A stretch of 31,849 nucleotides of DNA from Oscillospiraceae bacterium (GTDB lineage Bacteria > Bacillota > Clostridia > Christensenellales > Aristaeellaceae). The notes beneath the pieces were generated by a model that was given only the letters and a program-made list of their open reading frames with translations, did not search any database and was not told the origin of the DNA. Numbering within the stretch: position 1 is the first letter of the stretch; every line of letters starts with the position of its first letter. The DNA is taken from positions 1 to 31,849 of the forward strand of contig JAITDK010000267.1 of NCBI GenBank assembly GCA_031282605.1, in the 5' to 3' direction. Shown one piece after another: positions 9,318 to 31,849 of this stretch. Both the position numbers and the translations under genes were made by a program.

Positions 9318-10097
9318 TCACACCTCAAATATACTTCTCAAGTAATCAAGGGACGCGCGCAGCGCGCCCTCGTCGCGCGTCAGGGCGCTGTACGGCTCCA
9401 GTATAACGTCTCCGCGATAATCCATCGACCGCAGAGCGTCCGCTAGCCTACGGAAATCGTACACCCCTTGCCCCGGCAGCGTCGAGCGGCCATGCTCGTC
9501 CTTATCCAGCACGTGTACGTGGCGCAGCCGCGAACCCATAGCCTTAACATACTCAACGGGATCCCACTGCGTCTCGAGCGCCTGCTTCGCGTCCATGACA
9601 AAGCCCAACGACGGGCAGACCTCGGCGGCCTCTATCGCGCGATCCGGCGCGTTTACAATGCACCAGCTAACGTTCTCCCAACATAATTGAATACCTCGCT
9701 TGGCGGCCATGCCAACGGCGTACACCAGCGCATCCGCCCATTGGGCGATCGGCCTGCGCTCGCCGCGTATCGACATCGGACCGTGGTACACATACAGTTT
9801 GGCGCCCAGTTCCGCGCCGGCGTCGAGCGCGCGCGCGAAGTTGTCTATGCCGTCCGCCACCTGATGCTTCGATTGCCCCAGCAGATCTGTTTCAAAGTGC
9901 TGCACGCGCGTATGCATCGATACCGGATCCATGCCGCCCAGGCGCGACTTGAGTTCGCGCCCAAACGCAGTCGAGTATTCGCAAAACGACTCTAAGAACA
10001 CCTCGCAGCATGGCACGTCGAATCTATGCATATAGCTGAGCGCGTCCTCTGTCTCCATTACACCGTAGTACATCCCGGTCGTCAGTCCAACACGCAT
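9318..10097 (-). CDS. Sugar-phosphate isomerase/epimerase (xylose-isomerase-like TIM barrel, AP endonuclease 2 family)
   Basis: CEVF, SMH, VYHG, WENV, MDAKQ, HVHVLD, LPGQG and ILE metal-site pattern; start at ATG 10097 behind GGAGG; 3 nt from the rmuC start. Confidence 0.85.
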   Translation of the reverse strand: MRVGLTTGMYYGVMETEDALSYMHRFDVPCCEVFLESFCEYSTAFGRELKSRLGGMDPVSMHTRVQHFETDLLGQSKHQVADGIDNFARALDAGAELGAKLYVYHGPMSIRGERRPIAQWADALVYAVGMAAKRGIQLCWENVSWCIVNAPDRAIEAAEVCPSLGFVMDAKQALETQWDPVEYVKAMGSRLRHVHVLDKDEHGRSTLPGQGVYDFRRLADALRSMDYRGDVILEPYSALTRDEGALRASLDYLRSIFEV

Positions 10098-20882: not shown

Positions 20883-23800
20883 TTAAGGAACGATGATCTC
20901 GCCCCCATCCTGAACCACCCACCCCTTGTCCACCGCGTCCGCCGCCTTGACAAACCCCAAGTCCACATTCCTTACCCGCTTGTTCGACTCGACCAGCACC
21001 AGGTCTGTAACCAACGGATCGTCGGCTCTGAACCGCAGGCTGCTGTTGATCTCCGGCAGTTTATCCGAACGCCGGGTCGGCAGCCAACCTTCCATCGCCG
21101 CCGCCAGTAAGCGGTATGTTCCCGGCCTTACGCCGCTGAACTCATAGTAACCGTTCGCGTCCGTCGTCGTCTCGCCCGCCTTCGTCCACTGTCCGTCCGC
21201 GCCGCGCTCCAGCGTCAGCGCCAGGCCGGCCATGCCGAGTTCGTCGTAGTCCTGCATTCCGTTCATGTTGCTGTCGATCCAGGCGAAATCCCCTATCGAG
21301 CCTGACCGCATCGCTCCCGCGTCGACATCGTAGAGCGCTCCGCCCATCACTAGCGTCAGCGCGCGCGTGCGCGATTGGTTTACATCCGTCGTTTCCGCCA
21401 TGGAACCGCCGTCTTGCCGCCGCGTGAACATCATACCGTCCGGCAATATGAAGCTCACCACGACCGTCCCGGGCGGCAGCCCCTCTATCATGTACGCGCC
21501 GGATTCATCGGTCACGGCGCTGAACGATCCGTGGGCGGTCTCCGCCGTGACGCTCGCGCCCACTACGGGCGGATCGTTCACGCCGCGCATGCCGTCGGCA
21601 TCCATGTCCTCAAATACCATACCCGATACCGACCCTAGTCGCGTGGCCCCCGCGCGGAGACCATCAAGCGCGTCGCCCATCAGCAGCGTCGCGGAATCGG
21701 CCGTCTCACCAGAATCCACATAATCATCAGGCCAGGCGTAAACCAGCGAGTACATACCGGGACGAAGCAGTTCAAATCGGAAGCGTCCGTCCCCGCCCGT
21801 TACCGAGGTTATCGAAACGTCATTTTCGTCGATCAGTGTGACATTAACATTGGACAGCGGCGATTCATCCAGACCGCGCTGACCATCGGCGTTCGAATCG
21901 GCGTATGTCTCGCCGCTGATCGAGCCGGCTTCCACCGCGCCCGCGCCGCAATCCGTCAGCGCCTGTCCCGGCGTCAGCGTAAACGCGTCGCTGAACGTCT
22001 GGCGCGCGCTGGTCAGCGGCATCACGCTGCCACCCTCGAACGGCTTCTCCGGCTTTGTGAAGATCAAGCCATCGGGCAGCGCGGCATGCAGCCGATACTC
22101 TCCGGGCAAGAGTTCCTCGATTATGTATGAACCGTCGTCGGACGTGCGCGATTGACGCACCGCCACGCCCGCCGCATCCAGCAGCGTGATCATCACGCCC
22201 GGCAGCGGAGGTTCGTTCGCTTCGGGCATGCCGTCGTAGACCGTGTCCAGCCATACTCGACCGGCGATGGAAGCCGATTTCACCACGCCGATATCGCGCG
22301 CCGAGACCCTTTCCCCCGAACGAACGCTGACTGTTATAGGCTCTTTATCGTTGGCGTCGATGAACAAATAACCGTCCGGCGGCGACGCGCTCAGCGCATG
22401 CTTCCCCGGCTTAAGGTTACTAAACCTATAAGCGCCATTGTCGTCCGTAACCGCCGAGCCGACCGGCGCGTCTAGACGCGATAACGACAGCCGCGCACCG
22501 GGCGGCGGATCGCCCGTCTCGTCGAGTATCAATCCTCCCAGCGAGGCTGGTTCATATACCCCGATCGGGCCGACCGTCGCAGCCGCGCCCATGCTCAGCT
22601 CGACATGCCACGCGGAATCGCCACCCATAAACGACATACCTTCAGGAAGAACCGCGTTTATGGCGTACGCACCGGGCCGCAGTTCGTCGATTATGAATCC
22701 GCCCCGCTCGTTAGCAACCGCGCTGAACCTCCGTCCGGATCCGCCTAGTATCGTTATCTCAACCCCGGCGACGCCTGGGTCATCGTCGTCTTGTCCGCCG
22801 TCTCCATCCATATCCATGTAGAACGATCCGGCTATGGATCCTAGCGCGGTCAACGGCGGCACGGTTATGGAGCGTGAGTTATCGCCAACCGTCAATGCCC
22901 TCGAGACCGACCGTTCGTCCGTGCCCTCGAACGCCCAACCGATTTCAGGCAATTCGTATACGACGGTATAATTACCAGGCCTCAACCGCCGCAAGGTGAA
23001 CGATCCAGTCTCGTCGGATACAGCCTCCGTGATGGTTCCGCCGTCCGCCGTCTTAAGGCTTACTAGCAAGCCGGGGGTCGTCTCTCCGCTCGCGCGTCGC
23101 GCCGTTCCTGTCAAATCCGTCAGCGGCGTGAGCGGCAGCTGTGCCTGAACGTCGGACGAGTCGAAACCGACCTGTATCGGCCAGAGCGGCTGGCCTTCCC
23201 CTTGCTTGGCTTCCGTCGGCGGCGCGAAGCCCTCCGGCACGTCTGTCTCCAGCGTGTAGGCGCCCGGCCTGACGCGGTCGAACCTCACCACTCCATCAGC
23301 GTTCGACGTTAGTTCGGTCAGCGTCACGCCGTCTTTCGTCAGCCTAACCTTTATACCCATCATAGGCAGGTCGGCTGAATCGCGCAGCCCGTCATCGTCA
23401 CGATCCTGCCAGACGACCGCTTCTATCGAGGCGACGCGCACCATGCCGATATGCGCGCCGATCTCGTCCTGTCCAGGCTTGAGCGTGAATGGCTCGCTGA
23501 TGATCGCGCCGGATTGTCCCGGTTCGGACGGTACGAACTCAAGTAGTGTATCGCGCCGCGGCATCGTCAGCGCCATGCCATCCGGGACGTATGCCAGCAA
23601 GCGCGTTTCCCCTGGCCGTAGCCGTTTGAACGAGTACGCGCCTTCAGAATCCGTTTCGGTTGAAAACAGTTCATTCCCCTGCGCGTCGACCGCCGAGATA
23701 CGAACGCCCGCCAACGGCGACTCGCCTTCGCCGTTGTTCATCCACACCGCGCCGCTCGCCGACGCTGGTATAAACGCCGTCCATTCCGCCTGCGCCGTTT

Positions 23801-26800
23801 CACCGATACGCAGCGTGAACCACGTCTCTCCGCTGTGCAGGATCATGCCGTCCGGCAGCGCCGGCTCCAGCGAATATGAACCCGCCGCCAATCCCGTGAA
23901 GATGAACCCGCCCTCTTCATCCGACGCGCTGGTCTTGACCGATCCGTCCGGCGTGACAAGCCCCACGCTGACGCCGTATATCGGCGCGCCTTCATGATCC
24001 TTTATCGTACCGATGATACTCGCGGCGGGCACGATCGCTATGCCGCGCTCGAGCCGCTCGCCCGACAAGAGCGATACGGTTTCGCTCCTAAGTATACCCG
24101 CTTCAAGCGCGGCGTCGGCAGGCGTAAGCCAGCTCAGCGTATATTCGCCCGGCTCGATCGTATCCAGCGTGAACGAACCATCCGCGCCCACCGACGCTTC
24201 ATAGACCGTTTGGCCGTTCGCGTTGGTCAAGCTGACGGCGGTTCGGCTCGCGTATGACGCGTCGAGTCCTTGGACTTCAACGCGGCCTGACAGCGCCGCC
24301 GCCGTTTGAGCGGCTATGTCAACCGACGCGCTTCCGCCGTATGGCAGCGTAACAACCCTCGGAGGATCGACGGGCAAGTATCCCGGCGGCAGCTCGGCCA
24401 GCAACGCGTATTCGCCCGGCGCGAGTCCGTCTATCCTGAACGAACCGGCCTCGTCGGCGTTGACGCTCGCGGCGAGTTCGCCGTTTCTCCACAGAGATAT
24501 AACTATATCTGCATGACGATCCATCAGCGCCGACGGACCGCTGACCGCGCCTGTCAGTACGCTTTCAGGCAGCACGGCGAATCGCCAGCCCGACTGGCTC
24601 AGCAGCGCGTAGCGAGCTGACGTACGTTGATACAGCTCATCAAACGAGAGTGTCAGCGACGCGTTCGACGGCACCTGCTCGTCGAAGGCGAACGCGCCGT
24701 CAGAGTCGGTGAACGCCTCGGCGATCACGACGCCGGAACTGTTGCTCGCGGTCACTCTCACTAATGGTACCCCGGCGTCGTTCAGACCGCGAACCCTGTC
24801 CATATCGCGATCCTCAAAAACCGAACCTTGAGACGTGCGGTGCGGCGTGATCAGCGTCAACCGCGCGAAAGACGTCGATTGACCGTCGACCGTGCGCCGC
24901 TGATCCTCGCCCACTTGAACAGGCGTCGTGATGTTCATTCGCGCGTTCAGCGTGACGGCCGCGTCCACAGCCAATCGAGGGAGCGCGCGGACTGCGGCTT
25001 CAATCTCAATCCCGTTCAGGGTAAATACCGGCTGCGCCGCGCTGGGAAGCGTTTCATCGCCGCCCAATACAATTCTCACGGATCGTATTGCTTCCCTCAC
25101 ATCGTCCCAGCGCAGCACGGCCGGCAGCGTCGCGCAGCCTTGATCGATCCAGCCGGCGTCATAGCCGACGAACACCCGCGCGGTCTCCGCTCCGTCAACG
25201 TCAGGTATCGTTATGCCTGAGAACGAAACACCCGTCTCGCTGTTCATGTCCAGGATGAACTCGGCGGCGCTTACGGGCAGCTGCTGGCCGGCAAGCGCGA
25301 GCGTCAGGCGGGTTTCGCGTTCCTCATTCAACTCCAATCTGGTCTCGGCAGGGATCCATGCCGGCGCGGGGCGTTGAGCACTTTCGGGTATCGGCGCGCT
25401 GACGAATACTACGCGCGAGGGCGTATCGGAGGGTGTGCCATCGCCGCGCAGGTATGGTTCCAGCGTGAAGTCCCGTGATATTGGCACAAACGCCGGATCG
25501 GCCATGTAACCGTCCGCGGACTCGATCAGCGTCAAGCGATAGCGTCCCGGCGGCAGCGGTTGAGGCGCTTCATAGCCGCTTGAGTCCCCCATCGAGAATC
25601 GCAGCGGCGGCAGCAAATCGTCGTCCAGGCTGACCAGCATGAAAGAGCCGCCGCGCACGCTCGCGCCGTATGTATCTTCATGCGACAGCGCGAACAATCC
25701 ATCCGCGCTGTCGACAAACGCGTCCAGCGTCACGTCGTCCCCCGGATACACCGTAACAGTGTGTGAGATCGGATCAGGCTGGAACCCGCCGACGGGTTCG
25801 GTCTCGCGGAATGTGTATGCCGTACCATCCAACCCGGCGGGCAGTGTGATTGCGGCTGACGCGTTGGTTGCGCCGATTGTGTTTCCGATCGCGTCGGTCG
25901 CTGTGTACGATCCCGGTTGGCTGACGAGGCTCACCGCCCCGGTTCCGTCAATCACTCGAGCCTTACGATTAACGCTAATACGCGCGTTTTTTGTGAACGC
26001 CAGCGTGGCGGAGGTTTCCTCGCCGCCGCGTATCTCAATGGACAACTGGCGCTCGGACGCGGTGTAACCTTGAGGCGCTTCATCCAGCGTAAGCGTGTAT
26101 GATCCCTCCGGCAGATTTGACAGCCACGATACGCCTGCGCCGTCCGTCGTCATTGAGCGTGGCGGCAGCGCACCGTTACCGTCGCTCTTGATAGAGACGC
26201 CCACGCCGCCAAGCGCGGCAACGGAGGATCGTGTTTCATACGCCTGGGCGATCAATCGAACCTGTCCCGTGCCGTCGTGCGTTAGTATGTCCCAATTAAA
26301 GACGTCTCCGGGTTCCAGGGTTATGAGGCGGTCGGGTTCATTTCCGGCGCGCAGCGTGTACTCGCCGGGCAGAATCGTCGGAAGGCCGGAGTCGTCCTGA
26401 TCCGCGCGGCGCGCCAGCCCTACAGCGTCGGTCTGCATACGCAATACCGAACCATCGACGGAGGTCAGCGTTATGATCTCGTCCGCGACGGGAGCGAGAA
26501 CGCGTTCCCCTGCCGGCGTAAACGCCGCCGCTTGGATTCTAACCGACAGTTGCGGCATAGGTTCGCACGCGGCGTTCAGGCGCGCCAGACCGCCGCTCAA
26601 TACCTCAATCCCGTACGATTCAATGGGGATAAACCGGGCAGGGAGGTTCGGCGCGAACAGATAATCTCCGGCGGGGAGCACACCCGCCCATGGCGCTCCA
26701 GGCTCGATCGCGCCGGACGCCGCGACGATCCCGGTTGAATCTATAATTGCAAACGTTATCGATTCATTTGCTGTAATCTCAACCAATCCGCCCGACAGCG

Positions 26801-27335
26801 AGTTTGTTATAGCGAGCGTCTCGCCGAACGACACGGCATTGGTCAGCGGAATGAGGCCGCCTGTCATGGTGTAACCGTCGGACGCGGTCAGCTGCCTCAG
26901 GTAGAGCGTCGGTTCGATAGGTAGGAGAAGGGGCTCGGGGAGCGTATCGACGGTGATGATCCATGGCCGCGCGGGATCGAGGGGATCAGGCCACGGCGTT
27001 TCACCGCCGCTGGCATTGAGCGCCACGACCTCGAACGAAACGCCCGGCAGCGGAGCGCCGTTGATCGGAAGGGTTCGACCGCCGTCCAGGATGATCTGAG
27101 TTGGTTCGCCGTTATTGATGCCGGTGACCGCGCCGATAACGGACAACCAAAGCGTCGCCGGAACCGAGGCGTTCGGGTCGGCGATGATATACGTAGCGTC
27201 GCCGATCCTCGCGGCGCCGCCCGGGGGGATGGGATCCAGATCCGCTAAGGCGGCGGTATGCACAGTGAATATAATTATTATAACAGCGGCTATGACGACC
27301 GCCGTAAGTGACCATCGTGCATATGTAATATCCAT
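20883..27335 (-). CDS. Giant secreted repeat protein (2150 aa) with SdrD-B/Cna-B-like and carboxypeptidase-regulatory-like beta-sandwich repeats; adhesin-like
   Basis: Signal peptide ending TAALA; about seven G-x-V-[WF]-x-D-x-[DN]-x-[DN]-G calcium-loop repeats; many F.F..L.PG.Y.L repeats; E-box-like Y.L.LDEAPQGY. Confidence 0.88.
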   Translation of the reverse strand: MDITYARWSLTAVVIAAVIIIIFTVHTAALADLDPIPPGGAARIGDATYIIADPNASVPATLWLSVIGAVTGINNGEPTQIILDGGRTLPINGAPLPGVSFEVVALNASGGETPWPDPLDPARPWIITVDTLPEPLLLPIEPTLYLRQLTASDGYTMTGGLIPLTNAVSFGETLAITNSLSGGLVEITANESITFAIIDSTGIVAASGAIEPGAPWAGVLPAGDYLFAPNLPARFIPIESYGIEVLSGGLARLNAACEPMPQLSVRIQAAAFTPAGERVLAPVADEIITLTSVDGSVLRMQTDAVGLARRADQDDSGLPTILPGEYTLRAGNEPDRLITLEPGDVFNWDILTHDGTGQVRLIAQAYETRSSVAALGGVGVSIKSDGNGALPPRSMTTDGAGVSWLSNLPEGSYTLTLDEAPQGYTASERQLSIEIRGGEETSATLAFTKNARISVNRKARVIDGTGAVSLVSQPGSYTATDAIGNTIGATNASAAITLPAGLDGTAYTFRETEPVGGFQPDPISHTVTVYPGDDVTLDAFVDSADGLFALSHEDTYGASVRGGSFMLVSLDDDLLPPLRFSMGDSSGYEAPQPLPPGRYRLTLIESADGYMADPAFVPISRDFTLEPYLRGDGTPSDTPSRVVFVSAPIPESAQRPAPAWIPAETRLELNEERETRLTLALAGQQLPVSAAEFILDMNSETGVSFSGITIPDVDGAETARVFVGYDAGWIDQGCATLPAVLRWDDVREAIRSVRIVLGGDETLPSAAQPVFTLNGIEIEAAVRALPRLAVDAAVTLNARMNITTPVQVGEDQRRTVDGQSTSFARLTLITPHRTSQGSVFEDRDMDRVRGLNDAGVPLVRVTASNSSGVVIAEAFTDSDGAFAFDEQVPSNASLTLSFDELYQRTSARYALLSQSGWRFAVLPESVLTGAVSGPSALMDRHADIVISLWRNGELAASVNADEAGSFRIDGLAPGEYALLAELPPGYLPVDPPRVVTLPYGGSASVDIAAQTAAALSGRVEVQGLDASYASRTAVSLTNANGQTVYEASVGADGSFTLDTIEPGEYTLSWLTPADAALEAGILRSETVSLLSGERLERGIAIVPAASIIGTIKDHEGAPIYGVSVGLVTPDGSVKTSASDEEGGFIFTGLAAGSYSLEPALPDGMILHSGETWFTLRIGETAQAEWTAFIPASASGAVWMNNGEGESPLAGVRISAVDAQGNELFSTETDSEGAYSFKRLRPGETRLLAYVPDGMALTMPRRDTLLEFVPSEPGQSGAIISEPFTLKPGQDEIGAHIGMVRVASIEAVVWQDRDDDGLRDSADLPMMGIKVRLTKDGVTLTELTSNADGVVRFDRVRPGAYTLETDVPEGFAPPTEAKQGEGQPLWPIQVGFDSSDVQAQLPLTPLTDLTGTARRASGETTPGLLVSLKTADGGTITEAVSDETGSFTLRRLRPGNYTVVYELPEIGWAFEGTDERSVSRALTVGDNSRSITVPPLTALGSIAGSFYMDMDGDGGQDDDDPGVAGVEITILGGSGRRFSAVANERGGFIIDELRPGAYAINAVLPEGMSFMGGDSAWHVELSMGAAATVGPIGVYEPASLGGLILDETGDPPPGARLSLSRLDAPVGSAVTDDNGAYRFSNLKPGKHALSASPPDGYLFIDANDKEPITVSVRSGERVSARDIGVVKSASIAGRVWLDTVYDGMPEANEPPLPGVMITLLDAAGVAVRQSRTSDDGSYIIEELLPGEYRLHAALPDGLIFTKPEKPFEGGSVMPLTSARQTFSDAFTLTPGQALTDCGAGAVEAGSISGETYADSNADGQRGLDESPLSNVNVTLIDENDVSITSVTGGDGRFRFELLRPGMYSLVYAWPDDYVDSGETADSATLLMGDALDGLRAGATRLGSVSGMVFEDMDADGMRGVNDPPVVGASVTAETAHGSFSAVTDESGAYMIEGLPPGTVVVSFILPDGMMFTRRQDGGSMAETTDVNQSRTRALTLVMGGALYDVDAGAMRSGSIGDFAWIDSNMNGMQDYDELGMAGLALTLERGADGQWTKAGETTTDANGYYEFSGVRPGTYRLLAAAMEGWLPTRRSDKLPEINSSLRFRADDPLVTDLVLVESNKRVRNVDLGFVKAADAVDKGWVVQDGGEIIVP

Positions 27336-27379
27336 AATTCACCGTTTTTCCCATTCATTCCCATACGTTTGCAGTCAGT

Positions 27380-27408
27380 ATTTTATCATGCCTGAGAGAA
27401 ATTTACAA
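27380..27408 (-). promoter_or_regulatory. Sigma-A promoter of the giant surface protein gene (extended -10)
   Basis: Minus strand: TTGTAA, 17-nt spacer, TAAAAT preceded by TGa. Confidence 0.65.
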
Positions 27409-27411
27409 GGT

Positions 27412-27540
27412 TGGATTTTTATGTCTCATCCTGGATTTTTCCTGGAATTTGCTGGGTTTTTTCTGGGAACAGGTGGTAATTTAGTGGCAGGTAATAATTG
27501 GCATTTATGGGATTTTATGGTAATTATGGTATTATATGGT
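27412..27540. repeat. AT-rich, C-depleted array of TGG-W-rich units with ~10-bp periodicity
   Basis: TGG starts at 27412, 27432, 27443, 27453, 27464, 27474, 27485, 27499, 27508, 27518, 27527 and 27537; line 27481-27540 is 30% GC with only 2 C. Confidence 0.65.
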
Positions 27541-27549
27541 TGTTTAAGG

Positions 27550-27578
27550 TTGAATAGGCGGGGTATGTATGGTAATGT
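27550..27578 (+). promoter_or_regulatory. Possible promoter of the thioesterase gene
   Basis: TTGAAT, 17-nt spacer, TAATGT preceded by TGg. Confidence 0.4.
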
Positions 27579-27615
27579 AGCTGATGTGATTTGGGGAGAT
27601 AGGGGGAAGATAGTT

Positions 27616-28023
27616 ATGACGGATATAGAAAGCGCGGCGGCCTTCTTTGGAGCGACGGATAGATTTGCGGTTGATGTGCTCGGCGCGGAGATTGAGCAGG
27701 TAGGGGATGGGTACGCGGCGGTCGGGCTGACGCTTAAGGATAAGCATCGGCGGGTAGAGAACGCGGTGCAGGGCGGGGTGATATTCACGCTAGGGGATTA
27801 CGCGTTCGCGGTCGCCACGAACGACGAGGATACGCGGGTAGTATCGCTGTCAAACACGATCAATTTTCACAAGCAGCCCAAGGGCGGGAGGCTCCGAGCC
27901 GAAGCGCGGCAGGAATCGCGCGGAAACACGGTGCAATCCTATCTGGTGCGGATAACGGACGAGTTGGGCACGCTGGTCGCCACGATGTCGGTAACCGGCT
28001 ACACGATTCACAAGCGAACATAG
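27616..28023 (+). CDS. PaaI-family hotdog-fold thioesterase
   Basis: DRFAVDVLG, VQGGVIFTLGDYAFAVATN and G.L.AEA...G...Y.V.ITDE.G.LVA; true start at ATG 27616 behind GGGGGA. Confidence 0.9.
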   Translation: MTDIESAAAFFGATDRFAVDVLGAEIEQVGDGYAAVGLTLKDKHRRVENAVQGGVIFTLGDYAFAVATNDEDTRVVSLSNTINFHKQPKGGRLRAEARQESRGNTVQSYLVRITDELGTLVATMSVTGYTIHKRT

Positions 28024-28151: not shown

Positions 28152-28197
28152 GTGGGTTAAAGGCGCGCCGCGGTCGTCCCCTTCCGACGCGCCGTCA

Positions 28198-28234
28198 GGA
28201 AAACCCCTCCGCCGCTGCGGCGAAGGGGTTTTCC
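28198..28234. terminator. Probable bidirectional intrinsic terminator
   Basis: ggaaaacccctccgccg-ctg-cggcgaaggggttttcc, with T-runs on both strands, between the convergent paaI and ABC genes. Confidence 0.75.
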
Positions 28235-28249
28235 CAATAGTTTTCGCCT

Positions 28250-30172
28250 TTAGAATGAGGCGGCTTGATCGCGGGAGGACTGTATCAAGTCTACTTGATG
28301 TTGCTTGATCCGGTATATCTTGTCGCAGATCTGGAATACGCTCGGGCGGTGCGTCGTCAGCACTACCGTTTTAATCTTGGAGTCCGTGAATATATTGTTC
28401 AGCACTTCTTTCTCTGTGTAAATGTCCAGCGCGGAGGTCGCTTCATCCAGCAATAGTATCGGCGCGCCGCGCAGCAACGCTCGGGCTATCGCCAGCCGCT
28501 GCGCCTGCCCTTCCGATAACCCTAGACCGCGCTCGCCCAGCTTGCTGTCCAGCTTGTCCGGGCTGCGCTCTATAAAGTCCCACGCGCACGCCTGCTTCAG
28601 CGCGGCGATGATCTCCTCGTCCGACGCGTCCGGATTACCCAGCAGCATATTGTCGCGTATCGTTCCGGAGAACATCGTGTTCCCCTGCGGTACGTACGAG
28701 AAGAACGCGCGCGTCTCCACCGATAACGGCAGCGTCTGCCCGCCCGGCGACGTCAGATACGCTTTACCTGAATTCGGCTCCAGCAGCCCGAGCATCAACC
28801 GCACCATCGTCGTCTAGCCCTCGCCCGACGGCCCTACCAGCGCCACTGACTCGCCTACGTTCACCGCGATGTTCGCGCGATCAAGCACCGTCTTGCCCTC
28901 GATGTATTCAAACGACAAATCCTCCACCATCATCCCCATGCCGCCCTGCTTCTTTGCAAGCTGCTCGAACTGCGACACCGCTTCCGGCTTCTGAGTACGG
29001 TCGCGCGGCAGATCGAACAGCTTGATTACGCGTTCGGCGCTGGCCGTTATCTCGATCGCGCCCATTATGAAACCCATGATCGCGTTTACCGGACCCGCCA
29101 CCTGCCCGTACAGCAACGAATACGCGGCCAGCACGCCGTATGTCAATTCACCTTCAAGTATCCTGTACAGCATGAATACGGTTATGCCATAACCCACTAC
29201 GCGTCCTACCAGCCCCAGCATCAATCCGGTCACTATGCCGTACCTGGTGCGCTCATACGTCAGGTCATACATCTTGTCGTGTATTTTGCGGTAGCGCTTC
29301 AGGAACTCAGGCACCAGCATGAACGACTTGACGACCATTATGTTGTACATAGACTCGTTCAGGAACGAGCTGTTCTCGCTGCCCAGTTCCAGCGAACGCT
29401 TGTTGTAATCGCGCGTGCGTTTCGCCTTTACGCGGATCACGAATAAGGACATCGGCACGCCTATCAGGGCTATTATCATCATCTTCCAGTCGAAGTAGAT
29501 CAGCATGGCGCTGGCCGCTATAAACTGGACGCACTGCACTACCAGCGACGGTATCGTGTTTAGCACAAACCCCGATATGGTGTCGGCGTCGCCCGCGATA
29601 CGGTTGACCAGATCGCCCGAGTGGAACCCGGCCAGGCTCATCCAATCGGCCTCAAGAACCGCCTTGAATACCAGCCTCTTGATCCCCAACCCGCAGTCCA
29701 TCGACAGCCTCAGCGTAAAGAACTTCATGAACAGCGACCAGCAGAACATGACGATCTTGTACAGCACATACCCGACGACGATCCATATCGCCCACGGCGG
29801 AATCAGGTTGAGCGCCCACGTGACGGTTCCCCAGAATCCGCGAGCCATCGCGTTGCCGAATTGCTGCTGAGCGAAGCTGATTAACTCCGGTATCTGCCCG
29901 ACAACCCAGTCCGCCAGCCATTTATACAGGTACGCGTACGCCACGCCCAGCAGCGTGAAGAATATCGACAGCGACAGCAGGAACCCTATCCGACCCTTGT
30001 ACGGCTTGCCGAATGTGGTCATCCACTTCAGCTGCTTCTTCATGTCGGTCCAGTTAATGGGATCGACGTCGTCCTGCTGGAATTGGACGAGGCGGTTGAT
30101 CAGGCCTTGGATGAACCCGTCCGCCTTGCCCTGCTTCTCTTGCTTTTCCTGCTTTTCCTGATTGTCTTGCAT
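28250..30172 (-). pseudogene. Fused TMD-NBD ABC exporter (type IV) interrupted by an in-frame TAG at the Walker A lysine; pseudogene or base-call error
   Basis: ORFs 28814-30172 and 28250-28807 are in the same frame and read GPSGEG-TAG-TTMVRLMLGLL. Downstream motifs YVPQG, LSEGQAQR, LLLDEATSALD and TTHR are intact. Start at ATG 30172 behind AGGAGG. Confidence 0.85.
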
Positions 30173-30180
30173 AAGTCCTC

Positions 30181-30657
30181 CTATATCCGTTTTACCGCGC
30201 GAACCAGCGCGAACAGTATCCTCCGCAGCGGACGCAGCGCCAGCCATACCCGCCCGTACAGTGCGGCCGCGGGCGAGTCGGCCTTTATGAACCGACCGTT
30301 CCTGCGCAGCATTACCACCTTTGCGTATATCCTCTCGCGCGGGATCGGGCCTTCCAGCCATACCTGGCCGTCGCCGCTCAAGATCGCGCCGCCTGACACC
30401 GCCTTGAGTACGCGATGCATTACCTGGCTGCCGTCGGCGCGCTGGGCATAAATAATCTGCCCGCGCTTAGGCGGCCAGTCCACGTCGGTATAGGGCGCGA
30501 GCACGACCGCATCCTTCATGTGATGCAGCGTCGGGATCATGCTGTCGCCGGTTACGGTCAGAGTCACCGAACCCAGCAGCGCCAGCGAGCCGCGCAGAGC
30601 GTCCAGCCCGGGATTACTTGGCGGCGCTTCGGGGAAGTTCAAGGGTGCGGTCAGCAT
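30181..30657 (-). CDS. S24/S26-family peptidase (SipW/Sec11-like Ser-His type) without an N-terminal membrane anchor
   Basis: VTGDSMIPTL (catalytic Ser), VMHRV (His) and SGDG; basic amphipathic C-terminus; RBS GGGAGG. Confidence 0.82.
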   Translation of the reverse strand: MLTAPLNFPEAPPSNPGLDALRGSLALLGSVTLTVTGDSMIPTLHHMKDAVVLAPYTDVDWPPKRGQIIYAQRADGSQVMHRVLKAVSGGAILSGDGQVWLEGPIPRERIYAKVVMLRRNGRFIKADSPAAALYGRVWLALRPLRRILFALVRAVKRI

Positions 30658-30696
30658 ATCGTCACCCTCCCACCGCCGTCACTACTGTCACCACTG

Positions 30697-31578
30697 TCAC
30701 CAATCGAGGTAGGCTTCCAGCGCCTCGACCGCGCGGACATCCGGCGTGCAGCTGAGCAGCGGCATCGGCACGCCGGTCAAAACCCGTTCGACCGTATCCA
30801 TGCCCAGGTTGAACAGCCGCTCGTCCCACAGCGGCAGCGACGTCCCCGCCAGTATGTATTGCAGACCCTCCGTATGACTCAGAGGGCGAACCGTGTTGAC
30901 GGGAGCCTGCGCGAGCGCGACCAGCGCGGCCAGCTTGACGCTGGCGTTTTCGTATATCTCGCTGGAACCAGCCCATGGCGAGCCGTACGCGTATATCCCG
31001 TCGGGATGGGCGCGCAGTATCGCGCGGTCGCCATTAAGGATGCGCGCGCCGCGGTTCTCGCGCCATAGATTCGCTTGAGTGGACTTGCCCGTCTGAGACG
31101 GCGCGGTGAACGCGACGCCGCCGCGTTCGGTCTCGATCAGCGCGCAGTGCAGCATGATCACGCCGTGGCTGAGCAGCATCTTCTCAAACAGGAACGCGTT
31201 GCCGTAATTCTCGTAGTCGAGCCAGTTATCCGGGATGAACACCTCCGCGCGCGTGTAATCGTTCTGAGGCATCAGCGTCCACATACAGCGGGGATCGCCC
31301 TCCCGCATCGCCGTCCGTTTGACGAGACGATCATTCCACAGGTACAGGCGGTTAACCAGATCCTCGCTGATCAAATCCATCGCGTCCTCGGCGGGAACGG
31401 GTGAATGAGCCGGGGCGCCGGGGTCGTATGCCCGCAGCGTGATAGCAAGGTCAGGCTCGCCGTCAAAGGCATGTCCGTCCTTCAACGCGAACGGTTCGAA
31501 TGACGCGAGCGGCTCGATTCCTGGCAATTCGCTTATCGACACATTCAACCCCGCTATGTTGTAACAATGCCGCGCCAC
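30697..31578 (-). CDS. HPr-kinase-like P-loop protein (lasso-peptide-kinase / ScmC-like family)
   Basis: MLHCALI, Walker A APSQTGKST, LNGDRAIL, GSPWAGSS and L.Q...N.V..L; GTG start at 31578 behind GAGGGG. Confidence 0.78.
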   Translation of the reverse strand: MARHCYNIAGLNVSISELPGIEPLASFEPFALKDGHAFDGEPDLAITLRAYDPGAPAHSPVPAEDAMDLISEDLVNRLYLWNDRLVKRTAMREGDPRCMWTLMPQNDYTRAEVFIPDNWLDYENYGNAFLFEKMLLSHGVIMLHCALIETERGGVAFTAPSQTGKSTQANLWRENRGARILNGDRAILRAHPDGIYAYGSPWAGSSEIYENASVKLAALVALAQAPVNTVRPLSHTEGLQYILAGTSLPLWDERLFNLGMDTVERVLTGVPMPLLSCTPDVRAVEALEAYLDW

Positions 31579-31620
31579 CGTATCCCCTCTCAATACAGAC
31601 AGAATAATTCCCTTTACGCG

Positions 31621-31649
31621 ATTATAGCATATCATTCACGTATTGTCGA
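31621..31649 (-). promoter_or_regulatory. Sigma-A promoter of the kinase-peptidase-ABC operon (extended -10)
   Basis: Minus strand: TCGACA, 17-nt spacer, TATAAT preceded by TGc; 42 nt upstream of the kinase start. Confidence 0.7.
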
Positions 31650-31717
31650 TAATTTGCGATATGGTTTTCATTGCCTGTTCATAAATGAGCGGAATCTAAC
31701 GGGCATGGAGGTTGTTT

Positions 31718-31849
31718 TTGAACGCCGGGCGCAGCATAGCAAGAGCGCGTCCGCTTTGCGGCATCGGAACCGACTTCGTTGAACGCCTAATAGCCGCCGT
31801 TCGACGGGGTTCCCCCCGTCGAGTCAGCGATATCTATGGTTATATCAGC
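31718..31849 (+). CDS. Possible 5' end of a divergent gene running off the window
   Basis: GGAGG (31707-31711), 6 nt, TTG; the frame stays open to the end: MNAGRSIARARPLCGIGTDFVERLIAAVRRGSPRRVSDIYGYIS. No family recognised. Confidence 0.3.
   Translation, partial: MNAGRSIARARPLCGIGTDFVERLIAAVRRGSPRRVSDIYGYIS

Follow-up and report, generated by a model that had tools for sequence, protein, structure and literature searches.

What does a short operon with the marks of a peptide-maturation pathway act upon, when no substrate gene lies beside it? The question is raised by a 31,849-nucleotide (nt) stretch of DNA from an Oscillospiraceae bacterium (contig JAITDK010000267.1 of assembly GCA_031282605.1; hereafter the window), which is the whole of contig C178 in a metagenome-assembled genome (MAG; G000) of 2.41 Mb, 332 contigs and 78.5% completeness. 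We found 95% of the window's sampled words in run X1, a termite-gut metagenome. On its minus strand the window carries, in the order 5' to 3', a ScmC-like kinase gene, an S24/S26-type peptidase gene and an ATP-binding cassette (ABC) exporter gene, here called the trio. The initial annotation, made from the letters of the window, had taken them for a minimal phosphorylate-cleave-export pathway acting in trans on a substrate encoded elsewhere, or for the remnant of a larger cassette. Our analysis indicates that the trio very likely belongs to the family of ScmC-type systems built with a radical S-adenosylmethionine (rSAM) enzyme and PqqD. A more detailed reading, which we favor on balance, makes the trio the kinase/leader-peptidase/exporter half of a split ScmC-type rSAM system resembling those of peptides that are ribosomally synthesized and then modified post-translationally (RiPPs); contig C211 of the same genome would hold the other half, and the substrates would be dispersed, often multi-copy proteins of 150-215 amino acids (aa).

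The trio is a conserved unit. For its kinase-like protein we found 645 homologues and more than 580 genomic loci, the nearest homologues belonging to MAGs named Oscillospiraceae or Clostridia bacterium. The order ScmC-peptidase-ABC was kept in every locus with a ScmC-like gene at least 48% identical to that of the window (L018-L025, L013-L017 and G001-G003), and the nine genomes of the clade (G000-G003 and G041-G045, hereafter the trio genomes) all retain the three genes intact in this order, with identities of 48-94% across the clade. The flanks are unrelated among the relatives and include an FGGY kinase gene, LacI, a sigma factor/RsgI region, and a fucosidase gene with a tRNA. The co-conservation in other genomes on which the initial annotation had made its RiPP-type kinase-like/peptidase/exporter unit depend was thus observed, and because the order is kept in 9/9 genomes with unrelated flanks, the trio is not taken for a remnant of a larger cassette. 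The ScmC tree agrees with this, as the trio clade is monophyletic (support 100/100). Its sister group (96/87) consists of contiguous cassettes with the order PqqD-rSAM-x-ScmC-S26-ABC, and the simplest reading is that the rSAM and ScmC genes once stood in a single ancestral operon, which was divided between the two.

A search of the window confirmed that it holds no precursor, PqqD, rSAM or nucleotidyltransferase gene. The genome-wide search for PqqD and NTP_transf_5 that the initial annotation had recommended was positive, with both genes lying on C211 next to the beginning of an rSAM gene. The same order, NTP_transf_5-PqqD-rSAM/SPASM, recurs in G001, G002, G003, G041, G042, G043 and G045. An NTP_transf_5 match is present in 9/9 trio genomes, at E <= 1e-100 in eight of them and at E 6e-24 in G044, where the match has 30% identity and no rSAM gene was found beside it; in the loci checked, an rSAM gene adjoins NTP_transf_5 in six of seven. 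The full-length rSAM orthologue scores 70-75 bits with the PqqE and ScmE models, below their cut-offs. With this second locus, the reading of the trio as a minimal, self-sufficient pathway is not supported. Among the 26 relatives searched with both queries, ScmC and NTP_transf_5 occur together in seven and are both missing from 19, which is a pattern and not a statistic, since these relatives are kin.

The possibility that the missing genes lie just beyond the window in the same transcript had also been raised. In G002 the rSAM locus ends in convergent genes and the trio stands on another contig behind the FGGY kinase gene, and the trio of G003 is preceded over 5 kb by a tRNA and the fucosidase gene, with no rSAM gene; because these flanks differ, the relatives' missing genes do not lie just past the trio in one transcript. 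For G000 itself the data neither support adjacency nor strictly exclude it, as both the MAG contig and the corresponding Logan contig stop at 31849 and no match to the window's last 150 nt was found elsewhere in the genome or in the relatives' rSAM-downstream regions.

The wider context was sampled in 80 loci of more distant ScmC homologues, whose open reading frames (ORFs) were clustered. Near ScmC we found rSAM/SPASM genes in 58 loci, PqqD in 34, an ABC exporter in 27, NTP_transf_5 in 17 and the same S26-like peptidase in 15, and sometimes Wzz/tyrosine-kinase and CpsB genes. The partner enzyme of PqqD is rSAM/SPASM here and in all relatives. In 29 of the 80 loci a precursor of about 85 aa (family F6 in 25, F15 in four) is encoded near ScmC, usually directly upstream of it, with the leader MKKxYxKPEIxFExFxLSxNIAxxC, several Cys residues and a tail CYHxP..NLFNS, whose last residue is Ser in almost every case. 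In the large cassettes two further families travel with this precursor and ScmC: F2 (39/80 loci; e.g., L035:8868-9647), a 260-aa protein that matches nothing in Pfam or NCBIfam, and F5 (26/80; e.g., L035:2315-8536), a giant protein of 2000-2700 aa with a VWA domain. G000 has no counterpart of either. The PqqD proteins of the window's genus (C211/L098 and the orthologues L106 and L107) are 171-187 aa long and bear a conserved, acidic and Pro-rich C-terminal extension of about 80 aa, which is lacking in the 86-94-aa PqqDs of the large cassettes.

A small precursor of this kind did not emerge around the enzyme loci of the clade, as none of the ORFs of at least 20 aa was conserved among ten ScmC-upstream and six rSAM-downstream loci. 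The genome-wide search for short precursor ORFs, another proposal of the initial annotation, likewise returned no convincing candidate, either with a loose motif (Y.[KRA]P.[ILVMF]) or with a filter for small, Cys-containing, Ser/Thr-terminated ORFs preceded by a Shine-Dalgarno sequence, and a hidden Markov model (HMM) of the leader alone found nothing below E 0.29.

With the profile of the small precursors (A4), G000, G001 and G041 each yielded a single ORF of about 200-240 aa, that of G000 lying on contig C278 (E 0.012). Alignment of the small- and large-family leaders with hhalign gave a probability of 89% and E 2e-6 over 28 columns. Members of the large family are 150-215 aa long and begin with a leader of about 21 residues (MKKFEKPVV.LNEM.M.ESIA), directly followed by a CC motif. 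The homologues of the C278 protein share an invariant ES(I/V)A..CC, an LNGG, a CxH....C block and the tail H.GAT..H..G..W..PH.A.Q(Y/F).S; the C-terminal block of the family is conserved and rich in Cys, His and Trp, and its terminal Ser is almost invariant. Of the full-length members (n = 84), 78 have Ser as their last residue, and (N/S)E(S/M/T)(I/V)AxxCC is present in 69. The family has no Pfam match, and its profile found 96 clusters only among 1.84 billion representatives. It occurs in seven of the nine trio genomes (up to eight matches per genome), in one of 37 other relatives and in none of five sister-clade genomes. From these leader similarities and this distribution, the C278 family is quite probably the substrate of the trio system, and the initial expectation of a substrate encoded elsewhere and acted on in trans has a candidate that lies outside the window. 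The features of a RiPP system of the rSAM/SPASM type with a RiPP recognition element (RRE) are present in G000 as PqqD, the rSAM N-terminus and a leader-bearing, Cys-containing substrate, in genes that are non-adjacent and known here from sequence. In G022, a genome of the same family that is 93% complete, substrate genes lie at C143:16327-16884, C59:44-619 and C54:2-64.

The substrate genes are preceded by strong AGGAGGGG Shine-Dalgarno sequences. At L123:1594-1790 (on C278 of G000), as at L130, L134, L141 and L142, an A/T-rich stretch is followed by TTGACA, 17 nt, TATCCT/TATTAT and AGGAGGGG, an arrangement kept across genera, which suggests that the genes are strongly and perhaps co-regulatedly expressed. 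The contigs that carry them tend to be very short (0.8-3.5 kb), and binned MAGs probably under-report such genes. An ESM Atlas model of the substrate was unreliable (predicted local distance difference test, pLDDT, 0.27), and its structural neighbours were disregarded. The coordinates of the features in the window and on the two further contigs are collected in the table.

Table. Features of the trio, of the second enzyme locus, of the candidate substrate and of one other gene of the window; positions without a contig name refer to the window.
Feature	Position	Strand	Basis or remark
Promoter TCGACA-N17-(TG)cTATAAT, sigma-70-type	31621..31649	-	11/12 matches, TG extension
ScmC-like/HPr-kinase-like P-loop gene, 293 aa	30697..31578	-	start GTG 31578, preceded by GAGAGGGGA
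S24/S26-clan Ser/His peptidase gene, 158 aa	30181..30657	-	motifs, fold
ABC exporter gene, 640 codons (ABC_membrane + ABC_tran)	28250..30172	-	Pfam
In-frame TAG at the Walker-A lysine codon (GPSGEG*TT)	28814-28816	-	translation of the ABC gene
20-bp GC-rich hairpin between convergent genes	28195-28237	-	13 nt past the ABC stop codon
NTP_transf_5 gene	C211:803-2050	same as PqqD and rSAM genes	genome-wide search
PqqD gene (L098:273-788)	C211:273-788	-	42 bits
rSAM gene, first 107 codons	C211, runs off the contig start	same as PqqD gene	sequence
Candidate substrate gene, 214 aa, MKKFEKPVVALNEMMMSESIASICCY ... QQYAS	G000:C278:2431-3072	-	match to small-precursor profile
2150-aa protein gene, SdrD_B (11) + CarboxypepD_reg (14) + SpaA-type repeats	20883-27335	-	domain content

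The HPrK-like identity that had been assigned to the kinase-like protein has fold-level support, and its sequence scores are weak. In the local Pfam copy, Hpr_kinase_C included, the protein had no match at E <= 0.1 and by that criterion is not a true HprK. The NCBIfam ScmC model (TIGR04249) gave 21.2 bits (E 1.5e-4) over 35 P-loop residues only, short of its equivalog cut-off of 125 bits, and the weak NCBIfam matches to HprK_rel_A and HprK_rel_B were also confined to the P-loop. The local Pfam copy does not include the ScmC model PF27840; precomputed PF27840 matches are found on most homologues, among them the 92%-identical P0003. The protein carries the motifs LHC(A/S)LIE, APSQTGKST and NGDR. 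Across 20 diverse members H144, S161, G164, K165, T167 and D184 are invariant, and the P-loop and NGD184R are invariant or nearly so. Its structural model (pLDDT 92) retrieved with Foldseek phosphoenolpyruvate (PEP) carboxykinase (PEPCK) at E 3e-7 and the HprK/P structures 1kkl, 1jb1 and 2qmh at E 1e-5, and in a profile alignment to HprK/P of L. casei, H144, the P-loop and D184-R185 coincided with the His, the P-loop and the second Asp of ADDR; the HprK sequences of the PDB matched only at E 0.2. The protein therefore shows the PEPCK-like P-loop fold and the order His ... P-loop ... D-R of the HPr kinase/phosphorylase superfamily, with one Asp of the DD pair kept.

The assignment of the peptidase likewise has support from fold and active-site motifs, its profile scores falling below the cut-offs (Peptidase_S24, 17.2 against 23.3 bits; a second HMM, 13.2 against 22.9; NCBIfam also below). 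It carries GDSMIPT with Ser39, MHRV with His81, and GD at 95-96, forming a Ser/His/Asp triad, and S39, H81, R82, G95 and D96 are invariant in 19 sequences. The model (pLDDT 91) matched the LexA C-domain, SEC11A/C, SpsB and UmuD, so that the GxSMxP Ser, a general base and the beta-barrel fold of the signal peptidase I/S24-S26 clan are all present. No transmembrane segment was detected (maximum 19-residue Kyte-Doolittle hydropathy 1.25), which distinguishes the protein from a membrane-anchored signal peptidase I and makes its earlier label, soluble, a fair one; it also has two C-terminal amphipathic helices.

The exporter matches ABC_membrane with 99 bits and ABC_tran with 56 bits, has an N-terminal extension of about 60 aa and about five clear hydrophobic segments, and is 87% identical to the orthologue in L019 over 640 aa. 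Its N-terminal part has no Pfam C39 peptidase match and it is not a C39-type bacteriocin exporter. The in-frame TAG of the window stands where 10/10 orthologues checked have AAG or AAA for the Walker-A Lys, a 94%-identical relative having AAG within the same surrounding bases. The Logan contig of run X1 spans 28681-31849 with two differences from the window, and one of them, T for A at 28816, turns the codon into AAG. Past the TAG the gene is undamaged and ABC_tran is still matched. Since the orthologues and the Logan contig carry AAG or AAA, the TAG is, as judged from these alignments, a variant or error of this low-depth assembly and not evidence of a dead gene; contigs cannot reveal a minority TAG allele. 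Reading it as a recoded codon was discarded, since the AAG of the Logan contig reduces it to a simple A/T difference.

The transcriptional layout described in the initial annotation largely stands. A scan recovered the promoter before the kinase gene (11/12 matches at 31649..31621), and it is almost unchanged in the closest relative, L018. The ATG at 31635 given by the ORF list falls within this promoter, and the homologues start 19 codons further downstream; because they begin there and L018 has ATG in place of the GTG at 31578, this GTG is most likely the start of the kinase gene. The intergenic gaps are, as claimed, 39 nt between kinase and peptidase genes and 8 nt between peptidase and ABC genes. 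Of the terminator that had been called, the hairpin 3' of the ABC gene is there, folding at -44 kcal/mol over an 86-nt stretch (z -4.96), and the U-tract on the transcribed strand is not; for want of a T-run the hairpin was passed over by the terminator scan. It is probably the terminator nonetheless. That the unit is closed at both ends holds for this 3' hairpin only, as the contig ends 200 nt upstream of the promoter and 5' closure cannot be shown. In L018, the 1.7 kb upstream of the trio (L018:8300-9900) have no long ORF and contain an apparent opposite-strand tRNA gene at about 9380-9455. Upstream of the ScmC start, similarity to the window is lost within 90-160 nt, a hint of a rearrangement point exactly at the 5' edge of the operon.

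A specific chemistry can be outlined for the proposed system, and we give it a little less than an even chance. PqqD would bind the substrate leader, and the rSAM/SPASM enzyme would cross-link Cys residues in the core. The ScmC-like enzyme would then phosphorylate the C-terminal Ser, by analogy with PadeK and PsmK, and NTP_transf_5 would decorate the Ser phosphate, by analogy with PsmN. The Ser/His S26-like peptidase would remove the leader by cutting after ES(I/V)A, and the ABC exporter, itself devoid of a protease domain, would secrete the product. Signal peptidases (S26) prefer small residues at positions -1 and -3, and the ES(I/V)A site has small residues at both. For the tailoring steps, phosphorylation of the C-terminal Ser in lasso precursors by PadeK and PsmK supplies the only characterised precedents, and PsmN, an uncharacterised NTP transferase, adds hexose after Ser phosphorylation (PMC6993621).

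Several observations count against the split-system reading. The link between trio and substrates consists of leader similarity and co-occurrence among related, non-independent MAGs, and no substrate gene shares a contig with either enzyme locus. In G002 and G003 the enzymes are present and no substrate was detected, which may be explained by the short, under-binned contigs on which substrate genes sit, and G022, the sole exception to the co-occurrence, has no detectable ScmC homologue despite its three substrate genes. The rSAM gene of G000 is cut by the contig end, and in this assembly a stop codon interrupts the ABC gene of the window. The predicted complex of PqqD(1-100) and the leader(1-45) scored 0.33 against a mark of 0.34, and we list it here although it is evidence neither way. 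The kinase-like protein has a single Asp (NGDR) in place of the DD of HprK and PsmK, and a literature search on ScmC/SynChlorMet and on HPr kinases with rSAM RiPPs found no experimental paper. These last two points are shared by an alternative to which we assign a small chance, that the ScmC-like protein belongs to the proposed system without being a Ser kinase, acting instead as an ATP-dependent scaffold or chaperone, as a phosphorylase, or as an enzyme for another residue or a lipid or sugar carrier, with the terminal Ser used otherwise. It is favored by the marginal similarity to HprK sequences (E 0.2), by the best whole-protein fold matches being to PEP carboxykinase, and by the fact that the literature search found no ScmC member that had been assayed. 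It is opposed by the invariance of the P-loop, His and Asp-Arg in the 20 members, and by the terminal Ser, which small and large substrate families alike conserve and which agrees with the sole characterised precedent (PMC6993621).

That the trio is an autonomous phosphorylate-cleave-export pathway with a substrate of its own, independent of the NTP_transf_5-PqqD-rSAM locus, would agree with its own promoter and hairpin and its separate location in every clade member. We consider this unlikely, given that in other lineages ScmC lies near rSAM/SPASM in 58/80 loci, directly beside rSAM/SPASM and PqqD, that the sister clade has these genes in one operon, that NTP_transf_5 is matched in 9/9 trio genomes with an adjacent rSAM gene in 6/7 loci checked, and that without the RRE the trio has no known leader-binding part. 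Decay of the trio into a remnant with an ABC pseudogene, which no longer works, is suggested by the TAG at the Walker-A Lys and by the want of an adjoining maturase or precursor; it is made very improbable by orthologues that are all intact with the Lys codon kept, by the AAG read in the Logan contig from the likely source run, by the undamaged part past the TAG with its ABC_tran match, and by the 48-94% identity across the clade. Scarcely credible is a paeninodin- or pseudomycoidin-type lasso tailoring and export module whose core genes lie elsewhere, even with an HprK-like protein and ABC exporter in the trio and with NTP_transf_5 and PqqD, both lasso accessories in Firmicutes, in the genome. 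G000, at its 78.5% completeness, has no Transglut_core3 (B2), and the genome-wide search for Asn_synthase that had been advised did return matches, all of them outside the contigs of the two loci; for these reasons we do not regard this as a lasso pathway. The PqqD partner is, moreover, rSAM/SPASM here and in all relatives, and the candidate substrates are 150-215 aa long. What survives of the lasso analogy drawn in the initial annotation is the logic of kinase/nucleotidyltransferase tailoring. An extension of the split-system reading, for which we see a slim chance, is that in this clade a RiPP machine has been converted to the dedicated maturation and secretion of whole proteins, whereby the Ser phosphate would be joined to a sugar or glycopolymer by NTP_transf_5 as a sortase-independent decoration or envelope tether. 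It draws on substrates with conserved termini and hypervariable middles, on multi-copy genes and on strong expression signals, and it would fit the repeated occurrence of related cassettes next to capsule genes (Wzz/CpsB) and genes for giant VWA adhesin-like proteins.

Beyond the trio the window is ordinary chromosome, encoding FtsH, TilS, HPRT, RmuC, FtsW and a repeat-rich surface protein of 2150 aa. Judging from its domains, the last is probably a surface or adhesin protein; after it come a VCA0040-like protein (299 aa), a protein of unknown family (500 aa) and a Big_6 protein (552 aa). The 2150-aa protein was rejected as a substrate of the trio, as its family differs from that of the VWA giants of the large cassettes and it is not conserved beside the trio in relatives. 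The hairpin at 28195-28237 is shared with a 4HBT-type thioesterase ORF (27115-28023, plus strand) that is convergent with the ABC gene; the TTG start listed for this ORF gives 302 aa, and the real gene is probably shorter, because the domain spans residues 218-292 only. A repeat translating as ...GLCPRPCEGLSALSNPDQASPGPS occurs at contig ends in G000 (C7:132-275, C56:6-272, C150:6-251 and C220:8-115), and this element is probably a dispersed repeat that breaks the assembly.

The observations indicate that a system of this family can be split into separately transcribed enzyme loci, so that cluster-based genome mining would miss it or misread it as incomplete. Substrates of 150-215 aa acted on in trans would, in turn, blur the boundary between RiPP biosynthesis and protein secretion or maturation. 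The system also supplies a concrete gene set, one substrate and six enzyme or transport genes, with clear mass-spectrometric predictions.

Compared with known systems, the peptidase resembles the signal peptidases of the endoplasmic reticulum, archaeal and SipW types (S26B; Sec11, SipW) in its GxSMxP Ser, in the HR His that replaces the bacterial Lys, in its GD and in the S24/S26 fold. It differs from them in being much smaller and without a membrane anchor, in the hydrophilic leader of its presumed substrate, which is no signal peptide, and in sub-cut-off Pfam and NCBIfam scores. Sactipeptide and ranthipeptide systems of the rSAM/SPASM and RRE type share the Cys-containing, leader-bearing substrates, the rSAM/SPASM enzyme with PqqD and a dedicated ABC exporter; unlike the system described here, they usually have C39-ABC or S8/M16 proteases and no kinase or nucleotidyltransferase, and their precursors are shorter than 100 aa and adjoin the enzymes. 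Lasso systems (PadeK; PsmK and PsmN; PMC6993621) have in common with it the HprK-like enzyme, the NTP transferase, the PqqD RRE, the ABC exporter and a Ser-ended substrate. In contrast to these, no lasso cyclase adjoins the loci, the genome has no B2, the core modifier is rSAM/SPASM, the leader is presumably removed by the S26-like peptidase, and the substrates are about ten times longer. Another likeness is to the SynChlorMet (SCM) cassette (ScmC, TIGR04249; ScmD, TIGR04248; ScmE/ScmF, TIGR04250/04251; Pfam PF27840), which also combines a ScmC-type P-loop protein, a PqqD-like protein and rSAM/SPASM. Here there is one rSAM enzyme instead of two, an S26-like peptidase, an ABC exporter and NTP_transf_5 are added, and the genes are split over two loci with large substrates in trans; because its scores are far under the cut-offs, the system is not among the SCM equivalogs. 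The family to which it very likely belongs is that of the widespread ScmC/HprK-like, rSAM/SPASM and PqqD cassettes, which are recorded in TIGRFAMs and Pfam but uncharacterised, and what is new here is the split into separately transcribed loci together with dispersed candidate substrates of protein size.

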